A DNA stretch of 63,483 bases, filler included, from Klebsormidium nitens (lineage: Eukaryota > Plantae > Klebsormidiophyceae), in assembly GCA_000708835.1 (NCBI GenBank). It is 4 parts of 4 records of this genome, joined end to end, with 100 filler letters (N's around TTAATTAATTAA, not from the genome) between each part and the next. Parts side by side here need not be neighbours in the genome. Positions count along the whole stretch, not along the records: positions 39,601 to 59,811 come from DF237651.1; 3 more parts are not named here. One strand, written 5' to 3'. Shown piece by piece: positions 43,661 to 63,483 of this stretch. Numbering within the stretch: the stretch's first letter is position 1; the number at the start of each line of letters is the position of its first letter. The notes beneath the pieces are model-generated. The model was not told the origin of the DNA, did not search any database, and saw nothing but the letters and a program-made list of their open reading frames with translations. Both the position numbers and the translations under genes were made by a program.

Positions 43661-44287
43661 ATGGGAGACATCATGCAGTCTTTCGAGACTCGCGAGGACA
43701 TGATGCGGCACCTCGTGCAGCCAGGATCGAAAATCTTGGAAGTAGGCGTCTTCAGAGGCAGATTCGCAAAGTTCTTGCGCAGCTTGGACCCTGCCGAATT
43801 GCATCTCATAGATCCCTTCGAGGGGAACTTATGCAGTGGAAACGCGGATGGCGTGAGCATAGAACATATCAATGGCGAAGCAGCTTTCGAAGAAGTGCGA
43901 GACATGTTTCGAGACGATGAGCGTGTGCACATATACAGGGACTGGTCGCCAAAGGCGCTGGAACAATTTCCGGACGATTACTTCCAAGCAGTATATTTAG
44001 ACGGGGACCACACTTACGAGGGAGCACGTAAAGACCTCGAGGCGTCCTTTCGAAAGGTACGAGACGGAGGCTATATCTGCGGTCACGATTACGACAGGAA
44101 TCCCAGCAAGTGCCCATACGAGTATAGCTTTGGAGTCCGTCGAGCCGTACGAGCGTTCACGGCCGACAAGAAGCAGAAGATACAATACTTGGGATTAGAC
44201 GGTTACATCAGTTTTGCCATCCGCGTCGACAAGTGCAAGAATCGAGTAGCACAACCGGTCAGCCACAGCAACATTTTGTTGGTATAG
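43661..44287 (+). CDS. Class I SAM-dependent methyltransferase (Methyltransf_24-like)
   Basis: ILEVGVFRG, LIDPF, VYLDGDHTYEG..DL, GGYICGHDY. Confidence 0.85.
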   Translation: MGDIMQSFETREDMMRHLVQPGSKILEVGVFRGRFAKFLRSLDPAELHLIDPFEGNLCSGNADGVSIEHINGEAAFEEVRDMFRDDERVHIYRDWSPKALEQFPDDYFQAVYLDGDHTYEGARKDLEASFRKVRDGGYICGHDYDRNPSKCPYEYSFGVRRAVRAFTADKKQKIQYLGLDGYISFAIRVDKCKNRVAQPVSHSNILLV

Positions 44288-44291
44288 TTGA

Positions 44292-44840
44292 ATGATGAAG
44301 CTGCTCTTTCTCTTTTCCATCCTGCTCCTCGGAGCTACCGCGTTCGCGCTCTCTTGCATCCCCTGGAACGCCCTCGGGGAGCGTATGAACGCACCTACCG
44401 AGAGTCAAAGGATCGTGATAGTGCCGGTCCTGCAGGGCGGTTCACCGACTCGGTTACTCAATAGAGAGTGCGCGGACACGAGGGGAAGAAAGCACAGCGA
44501 GTACAGACAAGTGGGCACGCTCTCCGCTCGAGGCGATGCGAGCAACGACGTATTGCCGCTCTTCGCATCCAAGAGCTGCATGCATAGAGATCGATACTTC
44601 TACCACACTCAGACGGGTGCGTACGAGCCGATCAGGCTCCCCGTGCACTATAAGAACCGTAATTGCATGAAGGACGACATAGGCTGCGAAACGGTCTACG
44701 AAGACGACCAGATGACCGTTCCCATCCTAGGTGGGGATAGAGCATATTCGGTCGCTCTATACGAAAACCTGTATTATTACCCTTTTCGTCCAGAGTGTCG
44801 CACTTCGAACGTAACGCTTGGAAATTCTGAGCGCGTTTGA
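44292..44840 (+). CDS. NCLDV DUF5755-like membrane/secreted protein
   Basis: N-terminal hydrophobic segment; YRQVGTL..VLPLF..DRYFYHT..IRLPV..NC..IGCETVY.DD..V pattern recalled from giant-virus proteins. Confidence 0.7.
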   Translation: MMKLLFLFSILLLGATAFALSCIPWNALGERMNAPTESQRIVIVPVLQGGSPTRLLNRECADTRGRKHSEYRQVGTLSARGDASNDVLPLFASKSCMHRDRYFYHTQTGAYEPIRLPVHYKNRNCMKDDIGCETVYEDDQMTVPILGGDRAYSVALYENLYYYPFRPECRTSNVTLGNSERV

Positions 44841-45266
44841 CCGCGTTTGTATGGACTAACTTTCTTCCTTAAGGGATAGTATGCTAACACATGTTGCATC
44901 ACTGGGCTTCGCTGACCTTGGACCTTTGCTCCTAGAATACCCCGTCGCAAAACGGATAGAGACCTTCATTCAAAAGGCACCATCTCAGTCCTCCGATGGG
45001 ACCTCAGTGATTCAGCTCGCGAGGTGTTCCGCAGGTGTACTCGTTATGGGCCGAAGGTCTACGGTATAGCTAGGGAGTCACAGCAAGTGATGTCCTAAAA
45101 ACGAAAAGTTTCTTCTGGTACCAGGCCAGCCCTGGCGGCCAGAGGAAAGCCAGTCAACTCTGGTATTATTATCATTTCTCGCTCCGATTCGTCACCTGCG
45201 TTACGTCAAAGAGGCGACAGTTTGGGCGAAACTGGTAATAACGAGAGAATGTGTCTTTCAACGGTG

Positions 45267-45725
45267 TCACGTATGGATCGAGCATGAGAGCGACGCTAAA
45301 GCCAGCGTTCCGTAGATGAATGTAGGCCACATGGTCACGAGTGCCCTGACGAATGCTCTGTCCAGCAACATCCCAAAAATCTTGCCGAGTCCGGGCACCA
45401 TCTTCATCATTCTCAAGAGGCTCACGAGGCCAGGAATCGACGGAGCTATCGATGCGAGAGCTACCGTACGCATCGTGATACAACGGAGGGGCTTGGCGAC
45501 CCGGAGATAGATGGTGACGAAGTTGACGGCATACAATAGGATGGTCGTGACGATGGCACACGCGATGTATTCGCCCATGCCGTGAAATCCACACGACTTC
45601 GTGATGAAGTCGCCGATGAGAGTGGTCACGAAAGCGCCACCGACCAGCATGAGTACGTTCTCGTACATCGCAGGAGAAGACGCGTTCCTCCACAACCCCT
45701 TGAAGAATGACTTTATGTTAGTCAT
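45267..45725 (-). CDS. Hypothetical multi-pass membrane protein (may extend to 45172 via a 1-nt frameshift)
   Basis: Three to four hydrophobic segments; alternative frame gives a plausible C-terminus AGFSVALMLDPYVTPLKDTFSRYY. Confidence 0.65.
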   Translation of the reverse strand: MTNIKSFFKGLWRNASSPAMYENVLMLVGGAFVTTLIGDFITKSCGFHGMGEYIACAIVTTILLYAVNFVTIYLRVAKPLRCITMRTVALASIAPSIPGLVSLLRMMKMVPGLGKIFGMLLDRAFVRALVTMWPTFIYGTLALASLSCSIHT

Positions 45726-45780
45726 CGCGTATGTTTTCAGTGCAGTAATTTAAAATCTCTCCTTATGCTATCGGAGATAC

Positions 45781-47835
45781 ATGCCAACGTTCAAGGGAGA
45801 ACTGAGTGCGACCAGGAACCCTTCAAACGAGCTGGCTTTCATCTTTAAGGCGTGGACCAGCGACTCTGCGGGGGATCCCGTCCACGAAAAGGCCGACACG
45901 TACCCGTTTCCCGGTGTGACTGATTTCGAAGCTCTATGTGCTGAAATCTTCTCGACGGTCGAGGAGTTCTGCAAGAGGAGCTCTTCAGACACCACGCCGG
46001 CGTCCGAGGACCAGCCCGCGTCCGATTCCACGCCCTCCGATCAGCCCCCGGCTGCGGACCAACCAGCTGCAGACGAACCCGCCGACCAGCCCCCGGTTGC
46101 GGACCAACCAGCTGCAGATTCCACGGCCTCCGATCAGCCCCCAGCTGCAGACCAACCAGCTGCAGATTCCACCCCCTCTGATCAGGTCCCAGCTGCGGAC
46201 CAACCAGCTACAGATGAGCCCTCAGACCAGTCCCCGGCTGCGGACGAACCAGACCAACCAGCTGCTTCAGAAAAGCCCTCAGACCAGCTCCCGGCTGCAG
46301 ACCAACCTGCTACAGACAAGCCCGCCGACCAGGCCCCGGCTGCAGATCAGCTCGCGTCCGAATCTACGGCCTCCCCAGCTGCAGATTCCACGCCCTCTGA
46401 TCAGCCCCCAGCTGCAGACCAACCAGCTGCAGAGTCCACGCCCTCTGATCAGCCCCCGGCTGCGGATCAGCCAGCTGCAGATTCCACCCCCTCCGATCAG
46501 CCCCCAGCTGCAGACCAACCAGCTGCAGATTCCACGCCCTCCGACCAGCCCCCAGCTTCGGACCAACCAGCTGCAGATTCCACCCCCTCCGATCAGGCCC
46601 CAGCTGCAGACCAACCAGCTGCNNNNNNNNNNNNNNNNNNNNNNNNNNNNNNNNNNNNNNNNNNNNNNNNNNNNNNNNNNNNNNNNNNNNNNNNNNNNNN
46701 NNNNNNNNNNNNNNNNNNNNNNNNNNNNNNNNNNNNNNNNNNNNNNNNNNNNNNNNNNNNNNNNNNNNNNNNNNNNNNNNNNNNNNNNNNNNNNNNNNNN
46801 NNNNNNNNNNNNNNNNNNNNNNNNNNNNNNNNNNNNNNNNNNNNNNNNNNNNNNNNNNNNNNNNNNNNNNNNNNNNNNNNNNNNNNNNNNNNNNNNNNNN
46901 NNNNNNNNNNNNNNNNNNNNNNNNNNNNNNNNNNNNNNNNNNNNNNNNNNNNNNNNNNNNNNNNNNNNNNNNNNNNNNNNNNNNNNNNNNNNNNNNNNNN
47001 NNNNNNNNNNNNNNNNNNNNNNNNNNNNNNNNNNNNNNNNNNNNNNNNNNNNNNNNNNNNNNNNNNNNNNNNNNNNNNNNNNNNNNNTGCAGATTCCACC
47101 CCCTCCGATCAGGCCCCAGCTGCAGACCAACCAGCTGCAGATTCCACGCCCTCTGATCAGCCCCCGGCTGCGGACCAACCAGCTGCAGATTCCAAGCCCT
47201 CCGATCAGCCCCCGGCTGCGGACGAACCAGCTGCAGTTTCCACCCCCTCTGATCAGGCCCCATCTGCGGACCAGCCAACTGCAGACAAGCCCTCAGACCA
47301 GTCCTCGGCTGCAGATCAGCCCGCGTCCGAATCAACGGCCTCCCCAGCTGCAGATTCCACCCCCTCCGACCAGCCCCCAGCTGCGGACGAACCAGCTGCA
47401 GATTCCACGCCCTCTGATCAGCCCCCGACTGCGGACGAACCAGCTGCAGATTCCACCTCCTCTGATCAGCCCCAAGCCGCAGACAAGCCCTCAGACCAGC
47501 CCCCCGCTGCAGACCAACCAGCTGCAGATTCCACGCCCTCCGATCAAGCCCCAGAGGAAGCTGAACCCACCGAGCCAGAAGCAGCAGCACGCGAATATGC
47601 TTATCTGGATGATGATGCTAGTACGTTCCAGATCAAACGTGCTGGACCTACGAAGTACGAGGTGTCCACTACCTACGAAGTCTGGGCATCGGAGAAGGAT
47701 CATGCAGATGGACGTCCTTCGATCCGGACGGAACCGATCCGCATCGTCATGTCTCTGTGGGACTTCCCACACATGTACGGTCGCATGCACGCGGAGATGA
47801 AAGAGAAGCATGCGGGGAAAACCAACCCATTATAA
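45781..47835 (+). CDS. Pro/Ala/Asp/Ser-rich repeat protein spanning a gap
   Basis: 16-aa unit ADSTPSDQPPAADQPA (48 bp) in many degenerate copies between short unique termini. Confidence 0.8.
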   Translation: MPTFKGELSATRNPSNELAFIFKAWTSDSAGDPVHEKADTYPFPGVTDFEALCAEIFSTVEEFCKRSSSDTTPASEDQPASDSTPSDQPPAADQPAADEPADQPPVADQPAADSTASDQPPAADQPAADSTPSDQVPAADQPATDEPSDQSPAADEPDQPAASEKPSDQLPAADQPATDKPADQAPAADQLASESTASPAADSTPSDQPPAADQPAAESTPSDQPPAADQPAADSTPSDQPPAADQPAADSTPSDQPPASDQPAADSTPSDQAPAADQPAXXXXXXXXXXXXXXXXXXXXXXXXXXXXXXXXXXXXXXXXXXXXXXXXXXXXXXXXXXXXXXXXXXXXXXXXXXXXXXXXXXXXXXXXXXXXXXXXXXXXXXXXXXXXXXXXXXXXXXXXXXXXXXXXXXXXXXXXXXXXXXXXXXXXXXXXXXXXADSTPSDQAPAADQPAADSTPSDQPPAADQPAADSKPSDQPPAADEPAAVSTPSDQAPSADQPTADKPSDQSSAADQPASESTASPAADSTPSDQPPAADEPAADSTPSDQPPTADEPAADSTSSDQPQAADKPSDQPPAADQPAADSTPSDQAPEEAEPTEPEAAAREYAYLDDDASTFQIKRAGPTKYEVSTTYEVWASEKDHADGRPSIRTEPIRIVMSLWDFPHMYGRMHAEMKEKHAGKTNPL

Positions 47836-49476
47836 GTCGCGGCTCTGAAGTCCAAAGACTTCGTCCGATACGTCCGCGTCTGCTGAATACATCGGTGCTT
47901 CGTATCTATGGATGGCATTGGGTCCTGCCATCTCTAACTCATCTTCGCTCTCCGAATCTAGTTCTTCCTCGGACGTGGCCGAATCGCTCTCGTCCCCGTG
48001 TAAGCCATCAAGCCTCCGCAGCGGATCTGGATCGTAGAAGGGGTTCAAGACCTTGTCGTCGAAATGCCCCCTCATCTTCGGGATGAGGTACCTCACTACC
48101 ATGATCAGGTTGTGATTCACGCCGTGAAACATGTACAGCTGCTCCCCGTTGGGTCTGTAAAAGTTCAGCGTCATGGAACTCAGTTGTCCTATCGGGTGGA
48201 ATCTCCTGTAAGGCACGCTCGAGTAATCGAAGCGGGACGTGGCATAACCCACTACGGCCAGTTTGAACAGCGCAAGTCCGAAGCTGTGCTTCTCGTAAGA
48301 GCGGCCTTTGTAGATGTGGGACTCGATCTCCGGAATTCTAAGCACGCAGTACGAGTCTCCCACTAGATTCAATATACCAGGAGCCTGGATGGTCTGCGTT
48401 CCTTGAGAGACCACTACGGTCATGACGACGCTCTTGTTCGTTATGTCCTGACCCGAAACGGCCGCGTTGGTCCAAGTGCTTCCGTCGGTAGAGTAGAGAA
48501 GTTGATTTGCACTGGCTATGATGGGCGTGCCATAGTACAGATCCACCTCTCCGACCGTAGTCGAACAAGAATACACCAGCCAGTATTCGACGCCCGCGGT
48601 TATCGCCGCTCCGATCGAACTTATGTCGCCACTCGTGGTGAACCCGGATATGCTCTGATCGGGGGTCGGGTAATTCAAGGCGGGGATTTGCGCGCCCGAG
48701 TAGAGAATCGCACCGGGTTGCTCTTGTACGGGATCGTTGCTGGTTATGAACCAATCTATGACCCTATCATCAGCGTCGCTCGTGACCGCGCAGGCGATGC
48801 GGATCTCTTTCAAGAGACCCGTCTTGGTCGCTACGAATTTCTGAGCGATGTACTCGACTGTAGAACCGTTAGGGCCTGCGAAAGGAATGGCTAATTCTAC
48901 CGCTTGAGGTCCCTCGAAAGCAAACACTTGTACTTCGTTCTCGGTTATGCTGCTATACGTGCCGGGACTCGAGTATGGGTCCAAGCAGCGGAACCTATCG
49001 TTCAAGTATTCGTGTCCTGCAGCATCCTCATCGAATCCCAGGACGGCGCGTATGGTCGAAGAGCCCATGAGAAAGTGAAATGGCGTCGGAGATGTGAATT
49101 TCAGCATGTTACGCAACTCTGGCGGGTTCGATTCTGCTACCGTAGTGATGCCACGTAGAGATAGTTTGTCATTCAGAGCAGCGATGAGCGAGGTGTCCGT
49201 ATGATCTCCGTTTGCAATCTGGATGATCTCCGGTCCATTGCCAACATCTACGACGAGACTGTTATTCACTTCATCGACGCTGTATTGCGTCCTAGGAATC
49301 GTTGCATCCACGACATCTATGCCGATGACTTGACGGAAAGGCGAATCGAAAGTGATCTGATACTGGTTAGGATAAGGCCAAGTACGTCTGTCACGAGTAC
49401 TCGAATTTACATTGTACATGTAGCTCTCTTCGATACTGTTCTCCATGAGATACTGAATATCTTCTATACTCCCCAT
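47830..49476 (-). CDS. DUF5901-like / putative penton (minor capsid)-type NCLDV protein
   Basis: N-terminus SIEDIQYL..NSSTRDRRTWPYPNQY.I.F..PFRQVIGIDVVDATIPRT; C-terminus FHPIGQLSSMTLNFYRPNG.LY.FHGVNH. Confidence 0.75.
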   Translation of the reverse strand: MGSIEDIQYLMENSIEESYMYNVNSSTRDRRTWPYPNQYQITFDSPFRQVIGIDVVDATIPRTQYSVDEVNNSLVVDVGNGPEIIQIANGDHTDTSLIAALNDKLSLRGITTVAESNPPELRNMLKFTSPTPFHFLMGSSTIRAVLGFDEDAAGHEYLNDRFRCLDPYSSPGTYSSITENEVQVFAFEGPQAVELAIPFAGPNGSTVEYIAQKFVATKTGLLKEIRIACAVTSDADDRVIDWFITSNDPVQEQPGAILYSGAQIPALNYPTPDQSISGFTTSGDISSIGAAITAGVEYWLVYSCSTTVGEVDLYYGTPIIASANQLLYSTDGSTWTNAAVSGQDITNKSVVMTVVVSQGTQTIQAPGILNLVGDSYCVLRIPEIESHIYKGRSYEKHSFGLALFKLAVVGYATSRFDYSSVPYRRFHPIGQLSSMTLNFYRPNGEQLYMFHGVNHNLIMVVRYLIPKMRGHFDDKVLNPFYDPDPLRRLDGLHGDESDSATSEEELDSESEDELEMAGPNAIHRYEAPMYSADADVSDEVFGLQSRDL

Positions 49477-49527
49477 GGTTCTACTCGCTGTCTACGAAAA
49501 AGAGCGCCTATACCTGGACGAAGGCAC

Positions 49528-51338
49528 CTAGAGTATGCGCCTGCGCTTGGCGCTTTCCTCTTCTCCTGAACTATGAAATTCTTTGATCTCCTTCAGGAGG
49601 ACTGCTCTGATGTTCCGTTCTGTGACCTCCACCGTGGAGTCTTCGTAGTAGTCGGTCGTCATCTCCTCTCCGCAGTCGGTGTCGGTCCGGGCGTCCCCGA
49701 AGTAAGGGTGCCTCAACGCTTCCTACAGCAACACGAGACTCATAAGAACTTATAGTACAACCTGATCTCTGCTTCGATGGGACACACGGGAAGCTCATCT
49801 ACGATGCTCCATCCCCGTTTCTCGTAATGACGCCGCAGCGCAGCTTTTCCTCGCAGGAACTTCCCGTCCAGTGGATCCCGAAACACGAATTCTAGCTGAC
49901 CAAGCGCGCTGTGCTCCATGTATACCTCTACACCGTGCTTCCTAGCATTGCTGAGAGTTGGTAGGCGAGAGGCTTTGTCCTTGACGGTGCTTTGGAGACT
50001 GAGAGTTTCGACGTATATGTGCAGCGTGCCTATGTTTGACGTTGAGAGCCTCTTCTTCCTGGCATTGTTGCGCTTCTGGACGCCTTGTGGAATCTTGACC
50101 TTGATCTCCATCTTTGAAATGCCACTGAGAAGCTTCTAAAGTTCCTTATATGGCCATCGTGTGACTTTCGGGCGCTCTTTTCGGACGCTTCGGTCGTAGG
50201 GGCCCGAACATCTTTTCGTGTGCCGTTTTTCGGACGGTGTCTATCGATATACGGACGATTCGGTTTCGGACGCAAATTTTCGGGCGCCAGAGAAGTAGCT
50301 CACCTTGGCCGTAATCCTCTTGGACGGGTCGAATCGAAGCAGCTGCTCGAGCAGGTCACGTGCCTCCGCGGAAGCACTGGGGAAACGGGCCTCCAGCGAA
50401 ACACCGGCAGAGTGGGGAGCTAGATCCCAGATGTAAGCCTTGGCTCTATCGTTCCCCACGAACTCGAGGTCCTCTTCCAAGGGGGTTCCCACGAACCTCA
50501 CGATCAAGCGCAGCTGTTCCAGGTAGTTTTTCCCAGGGAAAAGGACTGACCCAGCAAGCAACTCCCCAAAGATGCAACCCACCGCCCAGATATCGATCTC
50601 CGGCCCATACATGTCCTGCGAGATGAGCAGCTCTGGCGCCCGATACCACCTGGTGACGACGTATTCCGTCATCGGCCCATAGAGATTCTGGTTCCGTGCC
50701 AGGCCTAGGTCGCAGATCTTCAAGGTGCTGTCGTAGTTGATCAGGCAGTTGGAGGGTTTCAGGTCCCTGTGGATCACCCCTCTTTCGTGCATGTACTGGA
50801 CCCCTTTCAGCAGCTGCACGAACAGAACGCTCCTTTGATTTACGCAGAGAAGAGCGATCGTTTGCAACCAATGCACAGAAGCGGACCGATGCTGAGAGAT
50901 GCTCACGCGAATGAGAGGATGTAGAAGTATTCATACCTGATGGACGAGGATCCTGACGTGTTCCCCGCTTATGGCCAGCGTCCTCATCGCTCTGTGCAAG
51001 TCAATGTCCATGAGCTCTGTGACTATGTAGACGTCATGAAAACCCTTGTCTGCCGGTCTCATTACGTCTTTGATGCCGATGATGTTGTCGTGCTTTAGAT
51101 TTTTCATGATGCGCAGTTCTCTCACTGTCCTCTGCGCTTCCAACTTATTTTCCGTCGCATTGATGATCTTTTTTATGGCGACTTCTGCACCCGTCCTCAC
51201 GTCCTTCGCCGCACAGACCACTCCGAAAGCGCCTTTGCCTACAAGTCTGATGCACTCGTATCGCTCGTCCACCTCGAAAAGGTGACCCTCCAGGCGGTAG
51301 CGGCGCTTCCCAGACGGGCAATCCTTGGAGCTCGCCAT
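49528..51338 (-). CDS. MPK: MAP kinase, TEY type, 3 exons (51338-50937, 50813-50304, 49722-49528), 368 aa
   Basis: GKGAFGVV, VAIKK, HRDLKPSN, DLGLAR, MTEYVVTRWYRAPE; splicing restores HQ|LLKG and RITAK|EALRHPYF. Confidence 0.92.
49740..50111 (-). CDS. MBD-like (methyl-CpG-binding fold) protein nested in MAPK intron 2
   Basis: LGQLEFVFRDPLDGKFLRGKAALRRHY aligns with the MBD motif [25 protein letters not shown]; basic NLS-like RKKR; 123-aa ATG-to-stop ORF. Confidence 0.65.
   Translation of the reverse strand: MEIKVKIPQGVQKRNNARKKRLSTSNIGTLHIYVETLSLQSTVKDKASRLPTLSNARKHGVEVYMEHSALGQLEFVFRDPLDGKFLRGKAALRRHYEKRGWSIVDELPVCPIEAEIRLYYKFL
50166..50286. promoter_or_regulatory. Array of five TTTCGG[AG]CG motifs upstream of the nested MBD-like ORF
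   Basis: Copies at 50166, 50179, 50228, 50264, 50278; TATA-like CATATAAG just upstream of the ORF on the minus strand. Confidence 0.55.
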
Positions 51339-51701
51339 CCTCTCCCGAATTAAAAAGTCAAAGGGTCCCTACTTTCGGTCTTAAATACCCACACCCATCT
51401 CGGACGCCTCCCTCTGCCCGAGCACCCGAAAGAGTTTCACCGTCCGAAAGTAAGCGTACTCTACTCCTCTGATCGCAAAAAGAAGTCTTTCCGATCGCAG
51501 AATGGAGAGATGGATCAGCATACGGTCTATTCGCCGACACCTAGGAAGCGCTGCGTCAGCATAGAGGCTCTGGGATGTAAGCTGCTCATCAAGCACGCGA
51601 GGATAGCAGAGAAGCCAGCAGAGAATGTCGTCGCGCTGAGGATCCTCGATCACGAGTCCAGACGGGATCGCGGCATAGCTAGAGAGAGTCTTCGCAGTCG
51701 A

Positions 51702-52085
51702 TTACAGCGGCGGAAGCTCCTGGCGTCGGCCAGAGATGTCTGCGCCTCGGAGGTGGAATCTCTTCAGTCTGGCAAAGGTCGCTTCGTCGATCTTGATCTT
51801 GATGTGGCAATGGAAATGCGTCTTCCACTGCCCCAAGTTGTAGGTCAGAGAGCAGTCGCTGCAGCCAGAATAGGCTCTGACCATCTCGATGGCCTCTAGG
51901 AGGATGGCTTTGAGGTCTTCTCCAGGCAGGTCCGTCAGGTGTTCCACGTGCAGGAAGGGTGTATAGATGAAGTACCGTCGATTTTTTAGGTCAAAGTGCA
52001 GGCGTCCGAGCTTACCATCTTTGATTATATGGGACACTATACGAGGCGACACGTCTGGTGAACAAGTGTAACAGACTCTTTCCAT
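51702..52085 (-). CDS. HIT-like (histidine triad) protein
   Basis: N-terminal CYTC, PFLHVEHLTDL, NLG..THFHCHI (HxHxH). Confidence 0.7.
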   Translation of the reverse strand: MERVCYTCSPDVSPRIVSHIIKDGKLGRLHFDLKNRRYFIYTPFLHVEHLTDLPGEDLKAILLEAIEMVRAYSGCSDCSLTYNLGQWKTHFHCHIKIKIDEATFARLKRFHLRGADISGRRQELPPL

Positions 52086-52387
52086 CACTTTACCTTCCGC
52101 GTTCTATCCAGATAACTCGACAGTGCACCCGTGAGGGACCCTGCCACGATGAGAGTGCTCGTGAGTGTCGCATCAGAGAGATGAGCGGAAGCGTTTCTCA
52201 GAGTGATGCATGTGCCGGATGTGGACGTGATCATGGACCGGAAGAAACCAGCTGAGCAGTAATTCTCGTGCAGCTTGTCGAGGACGAATCTCAGTGAATG
52301 ACAGCTCAAGAATACCCCGCCGGCGGAAAGGATGGGCGAAATAAAAGTGTATCCTAGTCTTACAGCAGCTTTGGCACAGTCCTTCAT
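52085..52387 (-). CDS. Small hypothetical membrane protein, NCLDV-like
   Basis: Two hydrophobic segments around LHENYCSAGFFRSMITSTSGTC; stop overlaps the next ATG (TGATG). Confidence 0.6.
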   Translation of the reverse strand: MKDCAKAAVRLGYTFISPILSAGGVFLSCHSLRFVLDKLHENYCSAGFFRSMITSTSGTCITLRNASAHLSDATLTSTLIVAGSLTGALSSYLDRTRKVK

Positions 52388-52446
52388 AGAGGACTTGCCC
52401 TATATAGTGACCGTATACTAAATTTCCACCGCAGGAACGCAGTTTC

Positions 52447-52998
52447 ATGGACGAAATAGCGAAAATACCTCCTAAAGCTCGGATCATGCACGTCCCTGGC
52501 GACGGGAGTTGCCTCTTTCACAGCGTCTTTCTAGCTTTCTATGACTGCTGCAAGGGGCTGCATAACGTGAAGTATACTGAGAAGGCACTCGTAGATGCCT
52601 CCAGTCACCTGAGGGGATTGGTCGTGGATTACGTACTCGAGCACTACAGGAAACCCCTCGGGGGCATTCCTGGGAACATGTGCGGGCGAGAACTGATAGC
52701 ATTAGAGTATGCATCAGACGCAACGGACGGAGAAGGCAGCGTACGTGGACCTTCTACGTATGCGCGCATGATGAGGAACACCAACAAGTATGCGGGGATC
52801 ACGGAGCTACATGCATTGAGTGCCTTGTTGGATGCCGTCATCGTGGTCCATTACTCGGGAGGGGATGGGCGGCACGAACTCTTAGACACTCTCAAGAGAG
52901 GACCCTCGCACCTCATCATCTTGCACGTGTTGTTCGACCCCCAGACTAAGCACTACTCGCCGATCCTATGCAGCGAGCTTTCGACCGAGAAGGGTTAA
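52447..52998 (+). CDS. OTU-family cysteine protease, intronless
   Basis: HVPGDGSCLFHSV, YAGITELHALS, KHYSPI. Confidence 0.88.
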   Translation: MDEIAKIPPKARIMHVPGDGSCLFHSVFLAFYDCCKGLHNVKYTEKALVDASSHLRGLVVDYVLEHYRKPLGGIPGNMCGRELIALEYASDATDGEGSVRGPSTYARMMRNTNKYAGITELHALSALLDAVIVVHYSGGDGRHELLDTLKRGPSHLIILHVLFDPQTKHYSPILCSELSTEKG

Positions 52999-53046
52999 AA
53001 GTTTCTCTTCCCAGAGATCTCATCGTTTATGTCTCTCAGTAGCTCT

Positions 53047-55798
53047 TCATGTCGCTGCCAAGTCTATCGGAGCGGTCCACACATACCCTTGGATGGGGTT
53101 GTAGATGCTGATCCTGTTGACCACCATCCCCTTCAACCTCGCCAGAGCCGCATACGTCAAAAGCTGCAGCACCCACGGCGCTTGGATACCACTCTTCTCC
53201 GCGCTGCACTTGATGTCGAGGATGCAGTCTCCCACGATGAGGTCCGCCACACCACGCAACGACTCGGTGGAGAGGTCCGTGTCGGTCGCCACCCCGAACA
53301 ACTGGTACATATCGTCCGGGGTGATGACCACTGGCAGCATGTCCACGGCTCCGTGCGACTCCAGGTGCTTTTCGATGATCGCCTCCACGAAGCGCTTCGT
53401 GCAACCGAATAGGCCTAGGTTCTTATCCTTGGACAGATCTCCCAGGTGGAGGTCGGTGAACGCGAAGTAAGTCCTGGCCAGTGGATATACCAGGTGCGCG
53501 CACACCGCTACGTCAGTGATCTTGCGGAGCGCTCTCCTACTCTCCGTGTCGTGGTCGAAGCCGATGTACTCCTTGTAACTCTCCCGGATGCGCTTCAGCG
53601 TATCCTCGAACCGCTTCGTGCGGAGCAGGGAGTCCTTGCTGCTCTTTGCAAATGCAGGAAGGCTCCTCCCGTCAAAGTGCATGACGATCCTCGTAGGGTC
53701 CACATCGAACTCGGCCGCCAGGGAGCGGACCATGCCCTCCACCTGTTCGGGGGTCGGCTCCGGCAGAGTCCAATTGTCTTCGAATGCCTTTACCCAGAGG
53801 AAGCACTTGTCCGCGAAGTGATCCGTCATCTTGACGGGATGCCCCTCCAAGTGGCTCAGACGCAGACACGCAGACATGACATGCCTATATATGACCCTTT
53901 CCACCGCAGAACCGTAGAGTATGTTGGTGTCGCCCGAAGCTGGGAAGCCGTGCACGGCGTGGAGCCTTTCGAAGGTCGCTCCGGGGTACGTCCGAGGGAT
54001 GACCCCACGCTGCTTCGAGCGGTCGTAGAATTCGCCCGAAGCGTGGCGGACGAAGTTGGTGACCGACCTGTTGGGCGGCAGCTGCCCGTCCGTGTCTCCG
54101 AACGTCCCAAAGATGGGAGTGGAGGACTTTTCGTCGTCCGTCACCAGTTCGTACGTAGTCCGGCTCGCCGGGAACAGAAGCCGGGTGATGCAGCGGCTGG
54201 GGCTCGTGATCAGCAGGGAGTCCTTGGCTCGCGTACAGGCCACGTAGAAGAGGTTGCGTTCTTGCTCCAGCTCTTCCTTCGTCAAGCACCGGTTGAGCAT
54301 GTCCGTGCAACCTATGACGATCACGGAACGCCACTCGAGCCCCTGCAGAGGATTTATTTTCTGCTGAAAACAATAAAATGGCTTTCAACCCCGTAGATCT
54401 CGCAGTACAGGCGGCATCTGGAATGAAACCGATCAATTGGACGGTCGTCTACGTCCTCGCAGGAGTGGGTGTCTTCTTCGCCCTCCTCATCACAGGCATC
54501 ACGTACGTGGTCATCCCAGCTACGAAGGTGGATCATGACACCGGGCGAAGGAAGAGCAACATGGGAGTGCGTCTTGCGATCACTTTCGTCGTGCTGTCTT
54601 TCTCCATACTGATATGCGGAAGTATCGGGTGGTCCCAAGGAAAGGATCTGGCGACGTGCTGGGCCAATCCGAAATTCTGCGCTGGAACGACGGCGATGGG
54701 CATGGCCGTAGACGATATCTTTGGTCGATCCTAGCTCACCTTCGCTCCGTGCATCGTGCACAGCGTGATCCAATCGCACTGGTCGCCTTTCCTCTTGACG
54801 GGTGTCGGTTCCGAGTCGCCTGTGTAGATCCTCGTCGCGTAACCCAGCTCCGTGAGCTTGTGAGCCAACGTGTACACCTCTCGCTGCGTCCTCGCTATCA
54901 CAGCTATGTCACCCAGGTCCCCTCCCGTCTTCGAGGCATGTGCGGCTACCTTCTCCGTCACGAAACGGACCTCTTCCGCCCGATTCTCGAAGACTGCGAG
55001 TCTGGGAGGCTCGGACGCGCAAGTCCTGACGTGTTTCATGGCATGACTGGATCGATCCGGGCGGATCTCGTTGCAAAAAGCTACCAGTGCTTCCGTACTC
55101 CTGTAGTTGTTCAGGAGCTCGAACGACTCGCAGGGGTAGGTGCCCAGCCGTGCGACCTTGGCCAGGAGGGTCGCATCGGAGGCGCGGAAAGCATAGATGT
55201 TCTGGTTGACGTCGCCCACCGCAAACACCCTCGTCGAATAACGCTCGACCAGCAACCGTATGACGTCGAACTGCGTCTGGTCAAGATCCTGAGCCTCGTC
55301 GACCAGCAGGAAATGGGGCACGAGAGACCGGATGGAATCGGACGTCTCCTGGTCTACCACAGTCCGGAAGGCCCTGAGCAGCCTGTAGATGTGCTCGTCC
55401 GGGAGGAAGACCTCCGATTCTGCGTTGCAGAAGTACGTCTCCTTCTCGCTGGCCACGAAAGCAGCCTCTAGCTTCTCTCCGTCCGCAGACCAGGGGCACG
55501 CATTAGGGAGGGTGAAGCGAGCCCGTCTGAGGATCGGGTCGAAAGCCTCCGCTAGCTCAAGACAGAATGAGTGAATGGTCGATGACTTCACCCCATCGGG
55601 CAGCCTAGCAGACACATCTGCGCTGGCTTGCCTGGAGAAGGTGACCACCCTTATCTTGGACGGACGTACGTCCTTGCACGTCACGAGATGTATGACTCTC
55701 TGCACCAGAGTCCTGCTCTTCCCAGCTCCAGGGCAAGCGGTGACCCTTATGTGCTTCTCGGTGTCCGCTTCTATGATGGGCCGCTGATTCGTGTCCAT
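53047..55798 (-). CDS. UvrD/AddA-like SF1 helicase fused to a PD-(D/E)xK nuclease, 2 exons (55798-54740, 54342-53047)
   Basis: ACPGAGKSRTL, TFSRQA, TIHSF, LVDEAQD, VGDVNQNIYAFR, NYRST, TMHGAK|GLEW, ERNLFYVACTRAK; C-terminal GVADLI..ILDIKCS..LQLLTYA. Confidence 0.9.
54378..54734 (+). CDS. Two-TM membrane protein nested antisense inside the helicase intron
   Basis: 118-aa ATG-to-TAG ORF with A-rich leader AAAACAATAAAATG and two clear hydrophobic helices. Confidence 0.8.
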   Translation: MAFNPVDLAVQAASGMKPINWTVVYVLAGVGVFFALLITGITYVVIPATKVDHDTGRRKSNMGVRLAITFVVLSFSILICGSIGWSQGKDLATCWANPKFCAGTTAMGMAVDDIFGRS

Positions 55799-55904
55799 GC
55801 TGGTAAGCAATATGCATTAACGTACATGTGTCACGCCATCCTTCCTAAGTTGGAGAAAAGAGACGGTTCGGTTTCATGTTGTAGGAAAATCACTTTGGAA
55901 CAGA

Positions 55905-58399
55905 TCAATTGTACATACGGAGGACGTATTCTGGGAGACTGGAGGACTGTAGCCACGGGGCCAGTAGTTCTTGTGTACAAGCGACTCTCTCATTCTCTGG
56001 CACGAACGGTAATATGCTATCGAGCTGCTCCAACAGTCCAGAGGAGGGCGCAAGAAGCCGCAACTTTTTCAGAGGGTTCCTGAACTCCTCCGGAGTCCCT
56101 TCCAGACGGAGCCGTTTCTCCACTGCCACAGGGCTCTGCAGTAGCAGCTGTGCTTGCTTCCAGTAAGCTTCCGTTGGACTCAAACCTTCCCAAATAGTGA
56201 TGAACCCGTCTCGCAAATGGAGTAGGTTGTGCTTCTCCCCGTCGCACAGGTCATAGATGAGAGGAAACGAATTCACTGCCAAAGAAGCAAGATAGCAAAC
56301 CAAGGCTTGTCCTCTGTGTGATCCATATTGGACGGGTCCAGAAGATCCTGCCGACTTGCCACTCTGCAAGAACAAAAATTATCATTTGCGCTCAATCAGT
56401 ACTGCAGCTAAATGCCCAATGCGGAACTCAATTCCACAAAGGTGTATGACTCTGCGTGTTATCCAGTAATTTGTGCATGAGTACTACAACAACGTGCCGA
56501 TTGGTTCATACAACAATCCATGCACATTTGTCGTGCAAACATTGAGAACAACTTACCGCTCCTGCGGAGGTCGAGATACGCTCTCTGTAACGCTGCCTCT
56601 GGTCTTCGGTCTGCTTATGCTCGAAGAGCACTCTGCATTGTCTAGCAGCAGACTCAGCGTACAGACCAAATGGCGCCAGAAGTCCATCTGCAGTGCCTGT
56701 GAACTGGGCTTCATCTGGAGCAGTGATGGCGTAGAGTGTCCGATTTGTATGAATGTCATATATCTGGAAAGCCCCCCGTCCAAAAGGCACCCCATACTTC
56801 TGAAGCTGTCGCTGATGGTGTTCGAGTAGAGCAGGAGTACCAGCGTCTTCGTTGGGGTAAAGGGAGTAATCAAAACTTTCTGCTTCCGGCGTATCTTTCT
56901 GAGGGCGGGACGACTGGATCCTCAGAGTTCCCAGATTCTTCAGCAAAATCCAGTTGGGCCAGGAGCTTCTGAGCTTCCACGGAACCGACCTTGGAGAAAC
57001 TCTTTGGTTTTCTCTCCTCCTGCTTTCGCATCTCTTCAAGCAGCGTCTGCAAGCCTGCTTGGAACTGGTCCACCGTAAGGACCCCACTCATATCAGCCCC
57101 ACCTGCAGCTGCAGAAAGCAGAGCAAGTAATGTATGTAAGCAAGTTCCCCGTAACGCAATTGTTGATTTATTACCATTTTCGCCCAAACTGTCGCCCCTG
57201 TTATGTAATGGGGGTCACAAGAAAAGGCGATGAATAGCAATAATGCCGGAGTTAACTGGCTATCCCTCAGCCGCCCAGCGTCCTTGGTAGGCAGAAACTG
57301 ACCAGAGTAAANNNNNNNNNNNNNNNNNNNNNNNNNNNNNNNNNNNNNNNNNNNNNNNNNNNNNNNNNNNNNNNNNNNNNNNNNNNNNNNNNNNNNNNNN
57401 NNNNNNNNNNNNNNNNNNNNNNNNNNNNNNNNNNNNNNNNNNNNNNNNNNNNNNNNNNNNNNNNNNNNNNNNNNNNNNNNNNNNNNNNNNNNNNNNNNNN
57501 NNNNNNNNNNNNNNNNNNNNNNNNNNNNNNNNNNNNNNNNNNNNNNNNNNNNNNNNNNNNNNNNNNNNNNNNNNNNNNNNNNNNNNNNNNNNNNNNNNNN
57601 NNNNNNNNNNNNNNNNNNNNNNNNNNNNNNNNNNNNNNNNNNNNNNNNNNNNNNNNNNNNNNNNNNNNNNNNNNNNNNNNNNNNNNNNNNNNNNNNNNNN
57701 NNNNNNNNNNNNNNNNNNNNNNNNNNNNNNNNNNNNNNNNNNNNNNNNNNNNNNNNNNNNNNNNNNNNNNNNNNNNNNNNNNNNNNNNNNNNNNNNNNNN
57801 NNNNNNNNNNNNNNNNNNNNNNNNNNNNNNNNNNNNNNNNNNNNNNNNNNNNNNNNNNNNNNNNNNNNNNNNNNNNNNNNNNNNNNNNNNNNNNNNNNNN
57901 NNNNNNNNNNNNNNNNNNNNNNNNNNNNNNNNNNNNNNNNNNNNNNNNNNNNNNNNNNNNNNNNNNNNNNNNNNNNNNNNNNNNNNNNNNNNNNNNNNNN
58001 NNNNNNNNNNNNNNNNNNNNNNNNNNNNNNNNNCTGTAATAATGTTATAGTTTGCGCAGAACAAGATAATGTTCAGTGCAATGTGCTGGACAGACTCGAA
58101 CTTTTTGAAGGATGTACCCTCGAACAGATAGATAAATTCATACTCCAAAGGTAAGGTCACAAACCTGCAGATTGCAGTCGGACCCTCTCGTCTAGCAGCT
58201 TGTTCTTCTCATCGCGCATTTTGTTCTCCGTCTCACGCAACTGCTGTAGCTCTATGGACCACCGTCGCACAGCTTCCAAATTGTTGATTCTCTCCGCACC
58301 CTCGACCTTTTCCTTTGCTTTTTGAATCTGCGGCGCTAGAAGCTGGATACATTCATTCACCTGAGCTATTTCCGAGTTGACTGCCTCCACGGAACCCAT
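55905..58399 (-). CDS. Crinkler-like / restriction-endonuclease-fold protein with coiled-coil N-terminus; 3 exons (58399-58165, 57108-56557, 56363-55905), 1-nt frameshift ~56886
   Basis: N-terminal VEAVNSEIAQV..W..ELQQLR..E; FTGTADG..CRVLFEHKQ; QALVCYLAS..FPLIYDLCDG; GT-AG sites with consistent phases; assembly gap in intron 1. Confidence 0.6.
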
Positions 58400-59811: not shown

Positions 59812-59911
59812 NNNNNNNNNNNNNNNNNNNNNNNNNNNNNNNNNNNNNNNNNNNNTTAATTAATTAANNNNNNNNNNNNNNNNNNNNNNNNNNNNNNNNN
59901 NNNNNNNNNNN

Positions 59912-62900
59912 ACGGCGGGCGGCTCCATAACCGCTTCCAACGGCCTCACTGTGTCCGGAGGCACGGTGTCCCTTCCCGCGAGCTCCGTCGTCAACGCCGC
60001 CATCGCGTCCGGCCTCGACGCCACCAAGATCACGACGGGCACATTCGGAGTGGGCGCCTTCGGGGCATGCAACATCTCGACTACGGGCACGCTCGGGGCG
60101 GGCGCCTCTACCCTCGGCACGCTGTCCTGCACGACCATCACCACGAACAATAGCAATCTGACATTGGGATCGGGCGGAGTCACCAGCGGGCAGCTCAACC
60201 CCACGACCACCGCCACCTACGATCTGGGAGCGAGCGGGACGGCATGGAAAAATGCTTACCTGTCCGGAACCGTGTCGGCGGCGGGCGGGCTGAGCACGTC
60301 CAACGGCCTGGTGGTCGCTGGGGAGTCGATCAGGTCGTACACCACGAGCTTCGACTCGACCACGTCCAACGCGTGCCGAGACATCGCACAGTACGTCGGG
60401 TCGGTGGGGTCCGCGACATTCGTAATATCGGTGGTGCAGTCGGCGAGTTCCCAGACGAACACGACTGAGTATTCCTTCGCGGCCGGCTACAACATGACGA
60501 GCGGGGCGTGGCAGCGCTGCATGCCGCGGAGTGCGTACAACGGAAACGCGGACGCGTGCGAGCTTCAGATATGGTCTTCGGTCTACACGATCAAGTTTCG
60601 CCTAGTGCACTCCGGAGTGAGCCAACCGGCGACCCCCACCGTCACCATCCACGCGTTCTACAATCAGAGCGACGTGCCGACGATCACGAGCCTGACGGCG
60701 AACGCGCAATATACGGATGCAAGCTGGGCGACCTACGCGTACGCAACGTCTACGGTCCTGACGCAGACCGGTGGAAAGGTCGGTGTGGGCACGGCGGCCC
60801 CTTCAGCAAAATTCCACGTCTCCAACGGCTCCGCCCAGTTCGACAGCAACGTCACGGTCACCAGCGCGCTCAGCACCAGCAACTTCACCGCCACCGGAAC
60901 GGTGTCCCTGCCTACGAGCTGCGTGACGAACGCTAACATCTCGAGCGTCGACGCGTCGAAGATCACATCGGGCACATTCGGAGCGGGCGCCTTCGGGGCA
61001 TGCAACATCTCGACGACCGGGACCCTCGGGGCGGGCTCGTCCACTCTGGGAACCCTCTCGTGCACGACCGTCACCAGCGGCCAACACAATCCCACCACCG
61101 CCGCCACGTACGATCTGGGCGCGTCCGCAACCGCATGGAGGAGCGCCTATCTATCGAGCAATCTGACTGCGGGTGGCTCCATAACCGCGTCCAACGGCCT
61201 CACGGTGTCCTCGGGATCCGTATCCCTTCCGGCTGGGTCAGTCGGCAATGCCGCCCTCGCATCCGGCCTGAATGCCACCAAGATCACCACGGGCACGTTC
61301 GGAGTGGGTGATTTCGGGGGATGCAATATTTCGACGACGGGGACCCTCAATGCGGGCTATTCGACATTGGGTGATATTTCGTGTGGTAGCCTGTCCCTCT
61401 CGGGCACGACGTTGATCGACGCTTCGCTCTCGGCGTACAATTCCGGGCACGACATCGGCAAAGCCCAAGACATGTCCTCGGTGTTCACCCCAGATTCCTC
61501 GGACATGACCTGGAACGACGTACACATCACGGGCGGCGTCAATATCTACGCCTCTGACCCCGGGTATTTCCTATCACTCGACTACCTCAACAACGACACC
61601 TACGGCTTCGGGCAATGGAGCGGGGGTACCGCCAGGGCTGTGTTCTCGGGTTCCAACGCCAACGCGACTTTCAACATCTCCAAGCCGACCGGCGCATCGA
61701 CCTTCGACGACATGGTCACGGTGACCAGCAGCGGCAACATGGGGCTGGGGGTGTCGCCCTCCACGACCTACAAACTCGACGTAGCAGGCAGGATGCATGC
61801 GACCAGCGGGGCTCAATTCGACAGCAACGTGACCGTCTCCGGGACCTTATCCGCCACGACGTACTCGGGTCTACAGAGGAAGGTGTGGAACGCTTCCACG
61901 CTCGGCTTCGCGAACACGACGAACACCGTCAAGTACCACAAGATAGCAACGTTCGGGGGCACGAACGCCGGCAACACCGCGGGATCCGTCTACATAACGG
62001 GAACCATGGGCGGATACATAAGCAATCAGACGACGAAAGTCGAGATCGACATAGCCAACAGAGGCGGTATCACGATCACCGGATCGGCGTTCGGATATCC
62101 GAGTACGACCTCGACCATCACCGACCTCGTCCTTTACTGGGAAGGGAGCAGCCTCGCCACGTCTCCGTGGTCGCTCTACATAGTCAGCAAGGGGCAATCC
62201 CAGGTTTGGGACCTGAGTGTTTCCGCGTGTCAATTAGGAGTAGTTATATACGAACCGAGTACCACTTACGTGACCGATCCAACTAACGGCGGCGCCTACA
62301 CACAGGTATGCTCTTCGGTGATAGGTCGATTGAATCAAGTCACGGAACTTTCGTCGGGGACCGCGGTCACATCGTACAATAACTATTCGTATACGTACAG
62401 TGCCGGTTGGGCGAGTGCGGGGACTNNNNNNNNNNNNNNNNNNNNTTCGGGCAATGGAGCGGGGGTACCGCCAGGGCTGTGTTCTCGGGTTCCAACGCCA
62501 ACGCGACTTTCAACATCTCCAAGCCGACCGGCGCATCGACTTTCAACGACATGATCACGGTGACCAGCAGCGGCAACATGGGGCTGGGGGTGTCGCCCTC
62601 CACGACCTACAAACTCGACGTAGCAGGCAGGATGCATGCGACCAGCGGGGCTCAATTCGACAGCAACGTGACCGTCTCCGGGACCTTATCCGCCACGACG
62701 TACTCGGGTCTACAGAGGAAGGTGTGGAACGCTTCCACGCTCGGCTTCGCGAACACGACGAACACCGTCAAGTACCACAAGTTAGCAACGTTCGGGGGCA
62801 CGAACGCCGGCAACACCGCGGGATCCGTCTACATAACGGGAACCATGGGCGGATACTTAAGCAATCAGACGACGAAAGTCGCGATCGACATAGCCAACAG

Positions 62901-63483
62901 AGGCGGTATCACGATCACCGGATCGGCGTTCGGATATCCGAGTACGACCTCGACCATCACCGACCTCGTCCTCTACTGGGAAGGGAGCAGCCTCACTACG
63001 TCTCCGTGGTCGCTCTACATAGTCAGCAAGGGGCAATTCCAGGTTTGGGACCTGAGTGTTTCCGCGTGTCAATTAGGAGTAGTTATATACGAACCGAGTA
63101 CCACTTACGTGACCGATCCAACTAACGGCGGCGCCTACACACAGGTATGCTCTTCGGTGATAGGTCGATTGAATCAAGTCACGGAACTTTCGTCGGGGAC
63201 CGCGGTCACATCGTACAATAACTATTCGTATACGTACAGTTCCGGTTGGGCGAGTGCGGGGACTGCAAACAGCGGCACCATCCAATGCGGCACTTTGTCA
63301 TGCAGCACACTCTCTTCGAGCGGCGCGATAAGCGGAACCACTATCACCGCGAGCGGAGCCGTCGCCTGCGTTGGTCTCAACGTCACTTCGTCTTCGACCG
63401 CAACCATCAATACCATGACGTCAATTTTAGCCCCATCGTTGGCAACTGGGAATTACATGCTCAACGTCTTTGGAACCGGTCAA
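59912..63483 (+). CDS. Ser/Thr/Gly-rich virion fibre/adhesin-like repeat protein, partial at both ends
   Basis: Three copies of ..LDA[TS]KIT[TS]GTFG.G.FG.CNISTTGTL.AG.STLG; YDLGAS.TAW..AYL; GNMGLGVSPSTTYKLDVAG; frame stays open from 62446 to the window end. Confidence 0.75.
61607..63264 (+). repeat. 819-bp tandem duplication inside the fibre gene (61607-62425 and 62446-63264)
   Basis: 11 substitutions between copies, separated by a 20-N gap. Confidence 0.8.

Follow-up and report, generated by a model that had tools for sequence, protein, structure and literature searches.

Motif V of a UvrD/PcrA-type helicase gene in the DNA of the alga Klebsormidium nitens (assembly GCA_000708835.1) is interrupted by 397 nucleotides made up almost entirely of another gene on the opposite strand, which raises the questions of whether this insert is removed as an intron and, if it is, how a gene came to form one. 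The stretch of DNA that we analysed (63,483 nt with filler, hereafter the window) has these features at the interruption, a slash marking each splice junction:

54740..55798, minus strand: exon 1 (353 codons) of a UvrD/PcrA-type (SF1A) helicase gene whose C-terminal domain is long; covers motifs I to the first half of V and ends TMHGAK
53047..54342, minus strand: helicase exon 2, a 431-codon frame with the GLEW half of motif V, motif VI and the C-terminal domain
52995..53063, minus strand: last 22 homologous helicase codons, out of frame; read in the other frame, they match the C-terminal ends of P0001 and P0013
54343..54739, minus strand: predicted spliceosomal intron, 397 nt, phase 0, GTGAGC...CTGCAG; no codon removed relative to 8 of 8 full-length relatives, and the same break in P0023 and P0024
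54731..54742, minus strand: donor region, AAG/GTGAGCTAG, containing the antisense of the inner gene's stop and the stop of the unspliced helicase frame
54343..54377, minus strand: acceptor region, where the antisense of the inner gene's A-rich leader is a T-rich tract, with two nearer in-frame AGs and a distal TGCAG/G
54378..54734, plus strand: inner gene of 357 nt, coding for 118 aa with two predicted transmembrane helices and a short hairpin between them; no Pfam family

The interrupted helicase and the gene within it

The two exons match different Pfam families (PF00580 at E 8.5e-32 for exon 1; PF13361 at E 1.3e-7 for exon 2), and the C-terminal part of exon 2, which has no Pfam match, carries a PD-(D/E)XK-like ending as far as the motif can be read by eye. 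Joined, the exons give 784 codons with none lost or duplicated at the junction when aligned with the eight full-length relatives described below, and they contain the SF1A UvrD/PcrA motifs I, II, III, IV, V and VI, motif V being complete only across the junction. In a structure model of an uninterrupted relative (mean pLDDT 54, with the helicase part confident) the position of the cut lies between adjacent strands in the C-terminal part of the helicase; a fold search with this model returned Fadolivirus, Hokovirus and mimivirus helicases as its top matches, the kin of mimivirus being best among viral folds. Core motifs I-VI followed by a long C-terminal extension are shared with PcrA and with the UvrD/REP helicases of mimivirus kin, whereas the window helicase differs from both in encoding motif V on two exons. 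There is a frameshift near 53063, at the 3' end of the helicase, and the integrated window copy is probably decaying. Past this frameshift, the homologous helicase stop would adjoin the stop of an OTU protease gene (52998), tail to tail.

Since the inner gene has a family of relatives at 37-96% identity (P0011 at 96%, P0018-P0021 at 37-59%), all with two hydrophobic helices, it is by homology a real protein-coding gene, lying wholly inside the predicted intron on the opposite strand. Its GC3 of 0.66 is like that of neighbouring genes. The structure model of its product has a pLDDT of 67 and found no match under E 0.65 in a fold search; neither Pfam nor the fold search gave a nuclease match, there was no phage match, and the ESM Atlas held no usable match for this protein or for the 123-aa ORF of a nearby MAP kinase intron (see below). 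P0022, a low-complexity repeat protein, was dropped as a relative.

An earlier note on this DNA had read the insert as a spliceosomal intron that is essentially one antisense gene, and its geometry holds in nearly every respect. Exon 1 ends at AAG/GTGAGCTAG and exon 2 starts with GLEW after CTGCAG/GGG; the membrane-protein coding sequence takes up 357 of the 397 intron bases, leaving 5 nt noncoding at the donor end and 35 nt between its ATG and the acceptor; its stop lies inside the donor sequence, at intron positions +6 to +8; and its A-rich leader is indeed the T-rich tract near the acceptor. The two further in-frame AGs that had been described are also present, ending at 54364 and 54361, which is 21 and 18 nt before the AG that restores the motif. 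The statement that the downstream half has no ATG of its own is right for the sequence upstream of GLEW but not for exon 2 itself, where an in-frame ATG at 54300 (codon 15) opens a 417-aa ORF.

The sequence of the insert holds further clues: firstly, all three minus-strand frames through it contain stops (3, 9 and 1), so that it cannot be read through; secondly, GT...AG ends with a U1-compatible donor, together with exact restoration of the homologous frame on removal, mark it as a predicted U2-type intron; thirdly, the window has just 10 strong donors of the form MAG/GTRAG, both strands counted (8e-5 per position), and in the interval from 35 to 58 kb there are two, the helicase donor and that of a MAP kinase intron. 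YAG/G has a frequency of 7e-3 per position, and for both splice-like ends to fall at a break defined by homology would by chance be of the order of 1e-6, a rough and post hoc figure. At the other end, the two nearer AGs lie directly behind the T-rich tract and their use would add 7 or 6 residues to motif V; the tract precedes these AGs, and only the distal acceptor has the form TGCAG/G, as in the plant consensus. We infer that the distal site is the one used. A self-splicing group I or II intron is argued against by the coding content of the insert (90%) and by a search for group I/II catalytic RNA cores that gave 0 Rfam matches at E 0.1 in 47100-57300. No RNA match to the locus is listed among 24 sequencing runs, and four of these, compared directly with the same interval, gave a single 35-nt partial match and no junction read; neither result is evidence on expression, and the comparison had no host-gene control. 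We propose that the host spliceosome likely removes the 397-nt GT-AG insert from a nuclear transcript, which would yield the full 784-codon helicase.

Uninterrupted and split relatives

A search for longer proteins (756 aa and longer) gave 10 matches, eight of them full-length (790-834 aa, 40-57% identical, covering 99% of exon 2). Motif V, as H.[AS]KGLE[WF], is unbroken in all eight, and also in two distant matches and in PcrA. The only named helicase relatives are two K. nitens gene models, P0006 and P0015 (GAQ92013.1 and GAQ90709.1), which as eukaryotic gene models do not demonstrate continuity of the DNA. These are further helicase copies of K. nitens with motif V unbroken in the models, and P0015 resembles a fusion of neighbouring genes made by annotation.

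A search with proteins of exon-1 length gave 3 matches at E 1e-30 or better among 6482 candidates, and two of the three end at the same residue as exon 1 of the window: P0023 (87% identical, Logan), in which HGAK is followed by VSQRYQITCQLRSS, and P0024 (78% identical, JGI), in which it is followed by VRD. The tails, starting Val-Ser and Val-Arg, differ in length and sequence, and both fit read-through of GTNAG. Both relatives were compared as protein sequences up to the ends of these tails; looking for the DNA context of close relatives in viral contigs, metagenome contigs and prokaryote genomes returned nothing or short generic UvrD motif matches. P0027, which is P0023 extended at its start, was counted together with it, and P0025 was rejected as a split relative, its break lying elsewhere (P0005 type). 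Orthologous helicases, which the earlier note had proposed to sort into continuous and split, thus come in both forms, eight full-length and unbroken and two broken at this residue.

The three split rows (window, P0023 and P0024) are set apart from 11 uninterrupted rows by a branch with 100/100 support, which indicates that the split is derived and arose once. Within this clade, changes are concentrated outside the columns that are invariant in the eight uninterrupted relatives used to define them (P0004, P0009 and P0010 were left out of the classing): one pair of split rows differs at 4/72 invariant versus 59/249 other columns (p 3e-4), a second at 3/72 versus 56/247 (p 1e-4) and the third at 4/72 versus 36/247 (p 0.04). 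Exon 1 of the window keeps 68 of 72 invariant columns and exon 2 keeps 92 of 99, and the end branch is 0.44 for exon 2 versus about 0.54 for exon 1. These substitution patterns indicate purifying selection on the split clade, with both helicase halves maintained long after the break, over 13-22% protein divergence.

Such maintenance bears on a very unlikely explanation, namely that the gene was merely broken by an insertion, in the virus or after integration, and has splice-like ends by chance, or that the window is mis-assembled. Integrated viral DNA does decay, the window copy is frameshifted, and introns of endogenous giant viruses have earlier been read as erosion (bioRxiv 10.64898/2026.10.09.758095); but the chance of such ends is as small as estimated above, two other assemblies break at the same residue, and both halves carry the signature of selection across the divergence just given. 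Because independent assemblies have the same break and both halves are maintained, mis-assembly, the objection that the earlier note had raised against its own reading, is excluded, and simple decay is unlikely.

The relatives also speak to a reading without splicing, in which two separate polypeptides, one with motifs I-IV and the other with motif VI and the C-terminal domain translated from the ATG at 54300, reassemble, the second being expressed from a bidirectional promoter that would also serve the inner gene. We consider this improbable. The ATG at exon-2 codon 15 is in frame and specific to the lineage (its Met is missing in 10 of 10 relatives compared, which have S, A, G, F, E or D there), and the layout is head-to-head with an AT-rich gap; yet the 50 nt before this ATG are only 38% AT, whereas the values for 10 neighbouring starts are 48-62%; motif V would be lost; and GLEW with the 10 codons after it would go untranslated even though they are conserved. 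The tails after HGAK, different as they are, nevertheless all begin with Val and then Ser or Arg. As the 14 exon-2 codons before the ATG share 8-10 identities with each of the 10 relatives, they are likely translated, and for this exon 2 would need to be joined to exon 1.

The P0023 tail carries information on the contents of its own insert. When back-translations of its 14 residues were read antisense against the C-termini of the distant inner-gene relatives P0018 and P0026, the best fit, ending MLFDIFD, scored 71, a value reached by 0 of 1500 random peptides (maximum 49) and 0 of 1000 shuffles (maximum 62); when each reference was used alone and a stop was not required, the score was reached by 1 of 400 and 0 of 400 shuffles. 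These data suggest that the P0023 insert likely starts with the same inner gene family, whose last codons would lie at most a few bases from the exon end. Should the inner stop come directly next, as in P0018 and P0026 and as the fit assumes, it would form donor positions +2 to +4. The 3-residue tail of P0024 is uninformative on the inner gene.

A virus-like segment with a probable second gene-carrying intron

The helicase belongs to a gene-dense, virus-like segment (43661-55798) with a methyltransferase, a DUF5755 gene, a low-complexity repeat gene with an assembly gap, a DUF5901 gene, a MAP kinase (MAPK), the OTU protease and the helicase. Both DUF families are characteristic of giant viruses of algae. 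Giant-virus hallmark genes (major capsid, PolB and A32 ATPase) were sought among 16 window ORFs, and none was present in this set. Intron-bearing, gapped sequence flanks the segment (about 43.6-55.9 kb), and a border between host and virus likely lies near 55900. Phycodnaviridae-like inserts have been reported in K. nitens (PMC5294986), and the locus is likely integrated giant-virus (nucleocytovirus) DNA in the alga. Two features of the segment bear on splicing:

49528-51338, minus strand: plant-like MAPK gene in three exons, best solved match MPK6 (E 3e-52)
49723..50303, minus strand: MAPK intron 2, gene-carrying, 581 nt, GTGAGC...GTAG, with a same-strand 123-aa ORF at 50111-49740

The MAPK gene, 4 kb from the helicase, is whole only after removal of two GT-AG introns, whereupon RITAK joins EALRHPYF. 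Intron 1 is 123 nt long; intron 2 has 192 nt of noncoding sequence before its ORF, the stop of which is 17 nt from the acceptor. The donor 11-mer AAGGTGAGCTA occurs twice in the window, at the helicase donor and in MAPK intron 2. Because the MAPK gene needs both GT-AG introns removed and the donor 11-mer is shared, the segment was evidently read by a spliceosome. Within the noncoding part of intron 2 (50166-50287), five copies of the 10-nt sequence TTTCGGRCGS stand upstream of the nested ORF and are perhaps regulatory sites. A possible resemblance of the 123-aa ORF to MBD proteins received no support from Pfam.

The intron reading of the earlier note is therefore supported by the uninterrupted relatives, by breaks at the same residue with donor-compatible tails, by purifying selection after the split and by the donor 11-mer shared with the MAPK gene. 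We consider it quite probable that the insert is a working, gene-carrying intron that arose a single time, in one clade of giant viruses associated with algae.

Origin of the insert and known viral introns

The split would be a single event in one clade of a giant virus that likely uses the host nucleus. For the order of events, we lean towards an origin in which the gene came first: a compact viral gene cassette may have landed backwards at an AG/G site, where, on the other strand, its last codon and stop could serve as a donor and its A-rich leader could provide the pyrimidine tract and AG; the insertion would thus be tolerated at once and the splice sites tuned later. We favour this order because the antisense of the stop end gives a GT donor, the A-rich leader gives a T tract, and there is almost no spare sequence. 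Transcription of the inner gene likely starts from a short AT-rich leader of its own and runs head-on into that of the helicase, so that the two genes are probably expressed at different times. The fuller proposal, that a whole ordinary viral gene became a spliceosomal intron with its stop end and leader supplying donor and acceptor, without a transposon, and in a lineage that packs genes into introns (the second case being 4 kb away), is tentative, and we put its chances slightly short of even.

In the reverse order, equally compatible with splicing, a small ordinary intron would have been gained and the membrane-protein gene would later have moved into it as a safe landing place. This is possible, if doubtful. 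MAPK intron 2, with a same-strand ORF behind its noncoding stretch, looks like an insertion into an existing intron; the window donor GTGAG is independent of the inner stop codon; and the C-terminus of the inner family varies (FGRS, FD, FGKVF), which leaves the polarity unsure. On the other hand, the noncoding intron amounts to just 5 nt plus 35 nt, the last codons of the inner gene in P0023 reach within a few bases of the exon end, and a short empty intron was seen in none of the relatives, which were compared as proteins.

Spread of a mobile intron element (an introner, a homing intron or a MING-1-like intron) by its own protein seems most unlikely to us. Three diverged genes do share one insertion site, as MING-1 introns do (PMC12768974), but a single origin accounts for this; moreover, the insert encodes a two-helix membrane protein without a nuclease match, not the homing endonuclease that characterises a shintron, and it has no terminal inverted repeats, no second copy in the window and no Rfam match.

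Among known systems, a close architecture is that of the herpesvirus terminase gene UL15, whose intron carries UL16 and UL17 on the opposite strand (PMC3079670). There, too, a viral GT-AG intron splits the gene for a DNA-handling ATPase and is filled from the other strand. The UL15 intron, however, is described as holding two or more genes, as occurring across herpesvirus subfamilies and as shown by RT-PCR, whereas the window insert is one 118-aa gene filling 90% of a 397-nt predicted intron, and a recent gain for which uninterrupted relatives exist. In mirusviruses more than 2,000 genes lie within spliceosomal introns, and nucleocytoviruses are described as generally without such introns apart from decaying inserts, pandoraviruses and some chloroviruses (PMC12768974). 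The intron-harboured genes of mirusviruses, shintrons and MING-1 introns resemble our case as protein-coding genes in the spliceosomal introns of large DNA viruses, some at a conserved site; in contrast, mirusviruses belong to a different phylum, and many of their nested genes are homing nucleases in morphogenesis genes (PMC12768974). We did not find in the text of that paper how the nested genes are oriented; its Supplementary Table 4, covered by word search, may list antisense cases.

Among nucleus-using giant viruses, GT-AG introns that are present in some relatives and absent in others are known from the DNA polymerase and pdg genes of chloroviruses (81-101 nt; PMC7019647), from pandoraviruses (PMC5995976) and from punuivirus, with 61 intron-bearing genes, a mean intron of 176 nt and latency genes, where the authors read the introns as functional (bioRxiv 10.64898/2026.10.09.758095). 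In this respect they are like the window intron, but those described are short and, in the portions of these sources consulted, come without mention of a nested gene (the word 'nested' has 0 matches in the punuivirus main text). In the literature searched, mostly outside subscription papers, we found neither this locus nor any gene-filled intron of a nucleocytovirus described. Gene-carrying viral introns are thus already known as an architecture; what is likely new is a recent gain with uninterrupted relatives, in a likely nucleocytovirus, of an intron that is almost only a non-nuclease gene.

The origin of new spliceosomal introns has long been debated, and it is rare for a gain to have a visible source sequence as well as relatives that retain the earlier state. 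For the helicase insert the source is a recognisable gene, and uninterrupted relatives (before) and three diverged split copies (after) are on record; if the gene did come first, this would be a route of intron gain that needs no transposon. The cassette, at only 397 nt, is short enough for a direct minigene test of whether a viral gene in reverse orientation is ready for splicing. Our results also suggest that the introns of giant-virus insertions in algae are not always products of decay but can be functional parts of the virus, maintained by selection. Gene callers that are blind to introns list such helicases as fragments, P0023 and P0024 being examples.

Some minor features of the window are recorded here. 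Directly upstream of the helicase, 55905-57214 (minus strand) holds a host-like gene with GT-AG introns and no Pfam match. At 52085-52517 (minus strand), overlapping 100-aa ORFs in two frames are possibly one frameshifted or spliced gene. Finally, 59864-63483 (plus strand) encodes a long Thr/Gly/Ser-rich repeat protein without a Pfam match, which to the eye resembles a viral fibre; ~840 nt of this sequence are duplicated internally, and several N gaps interrupt it.
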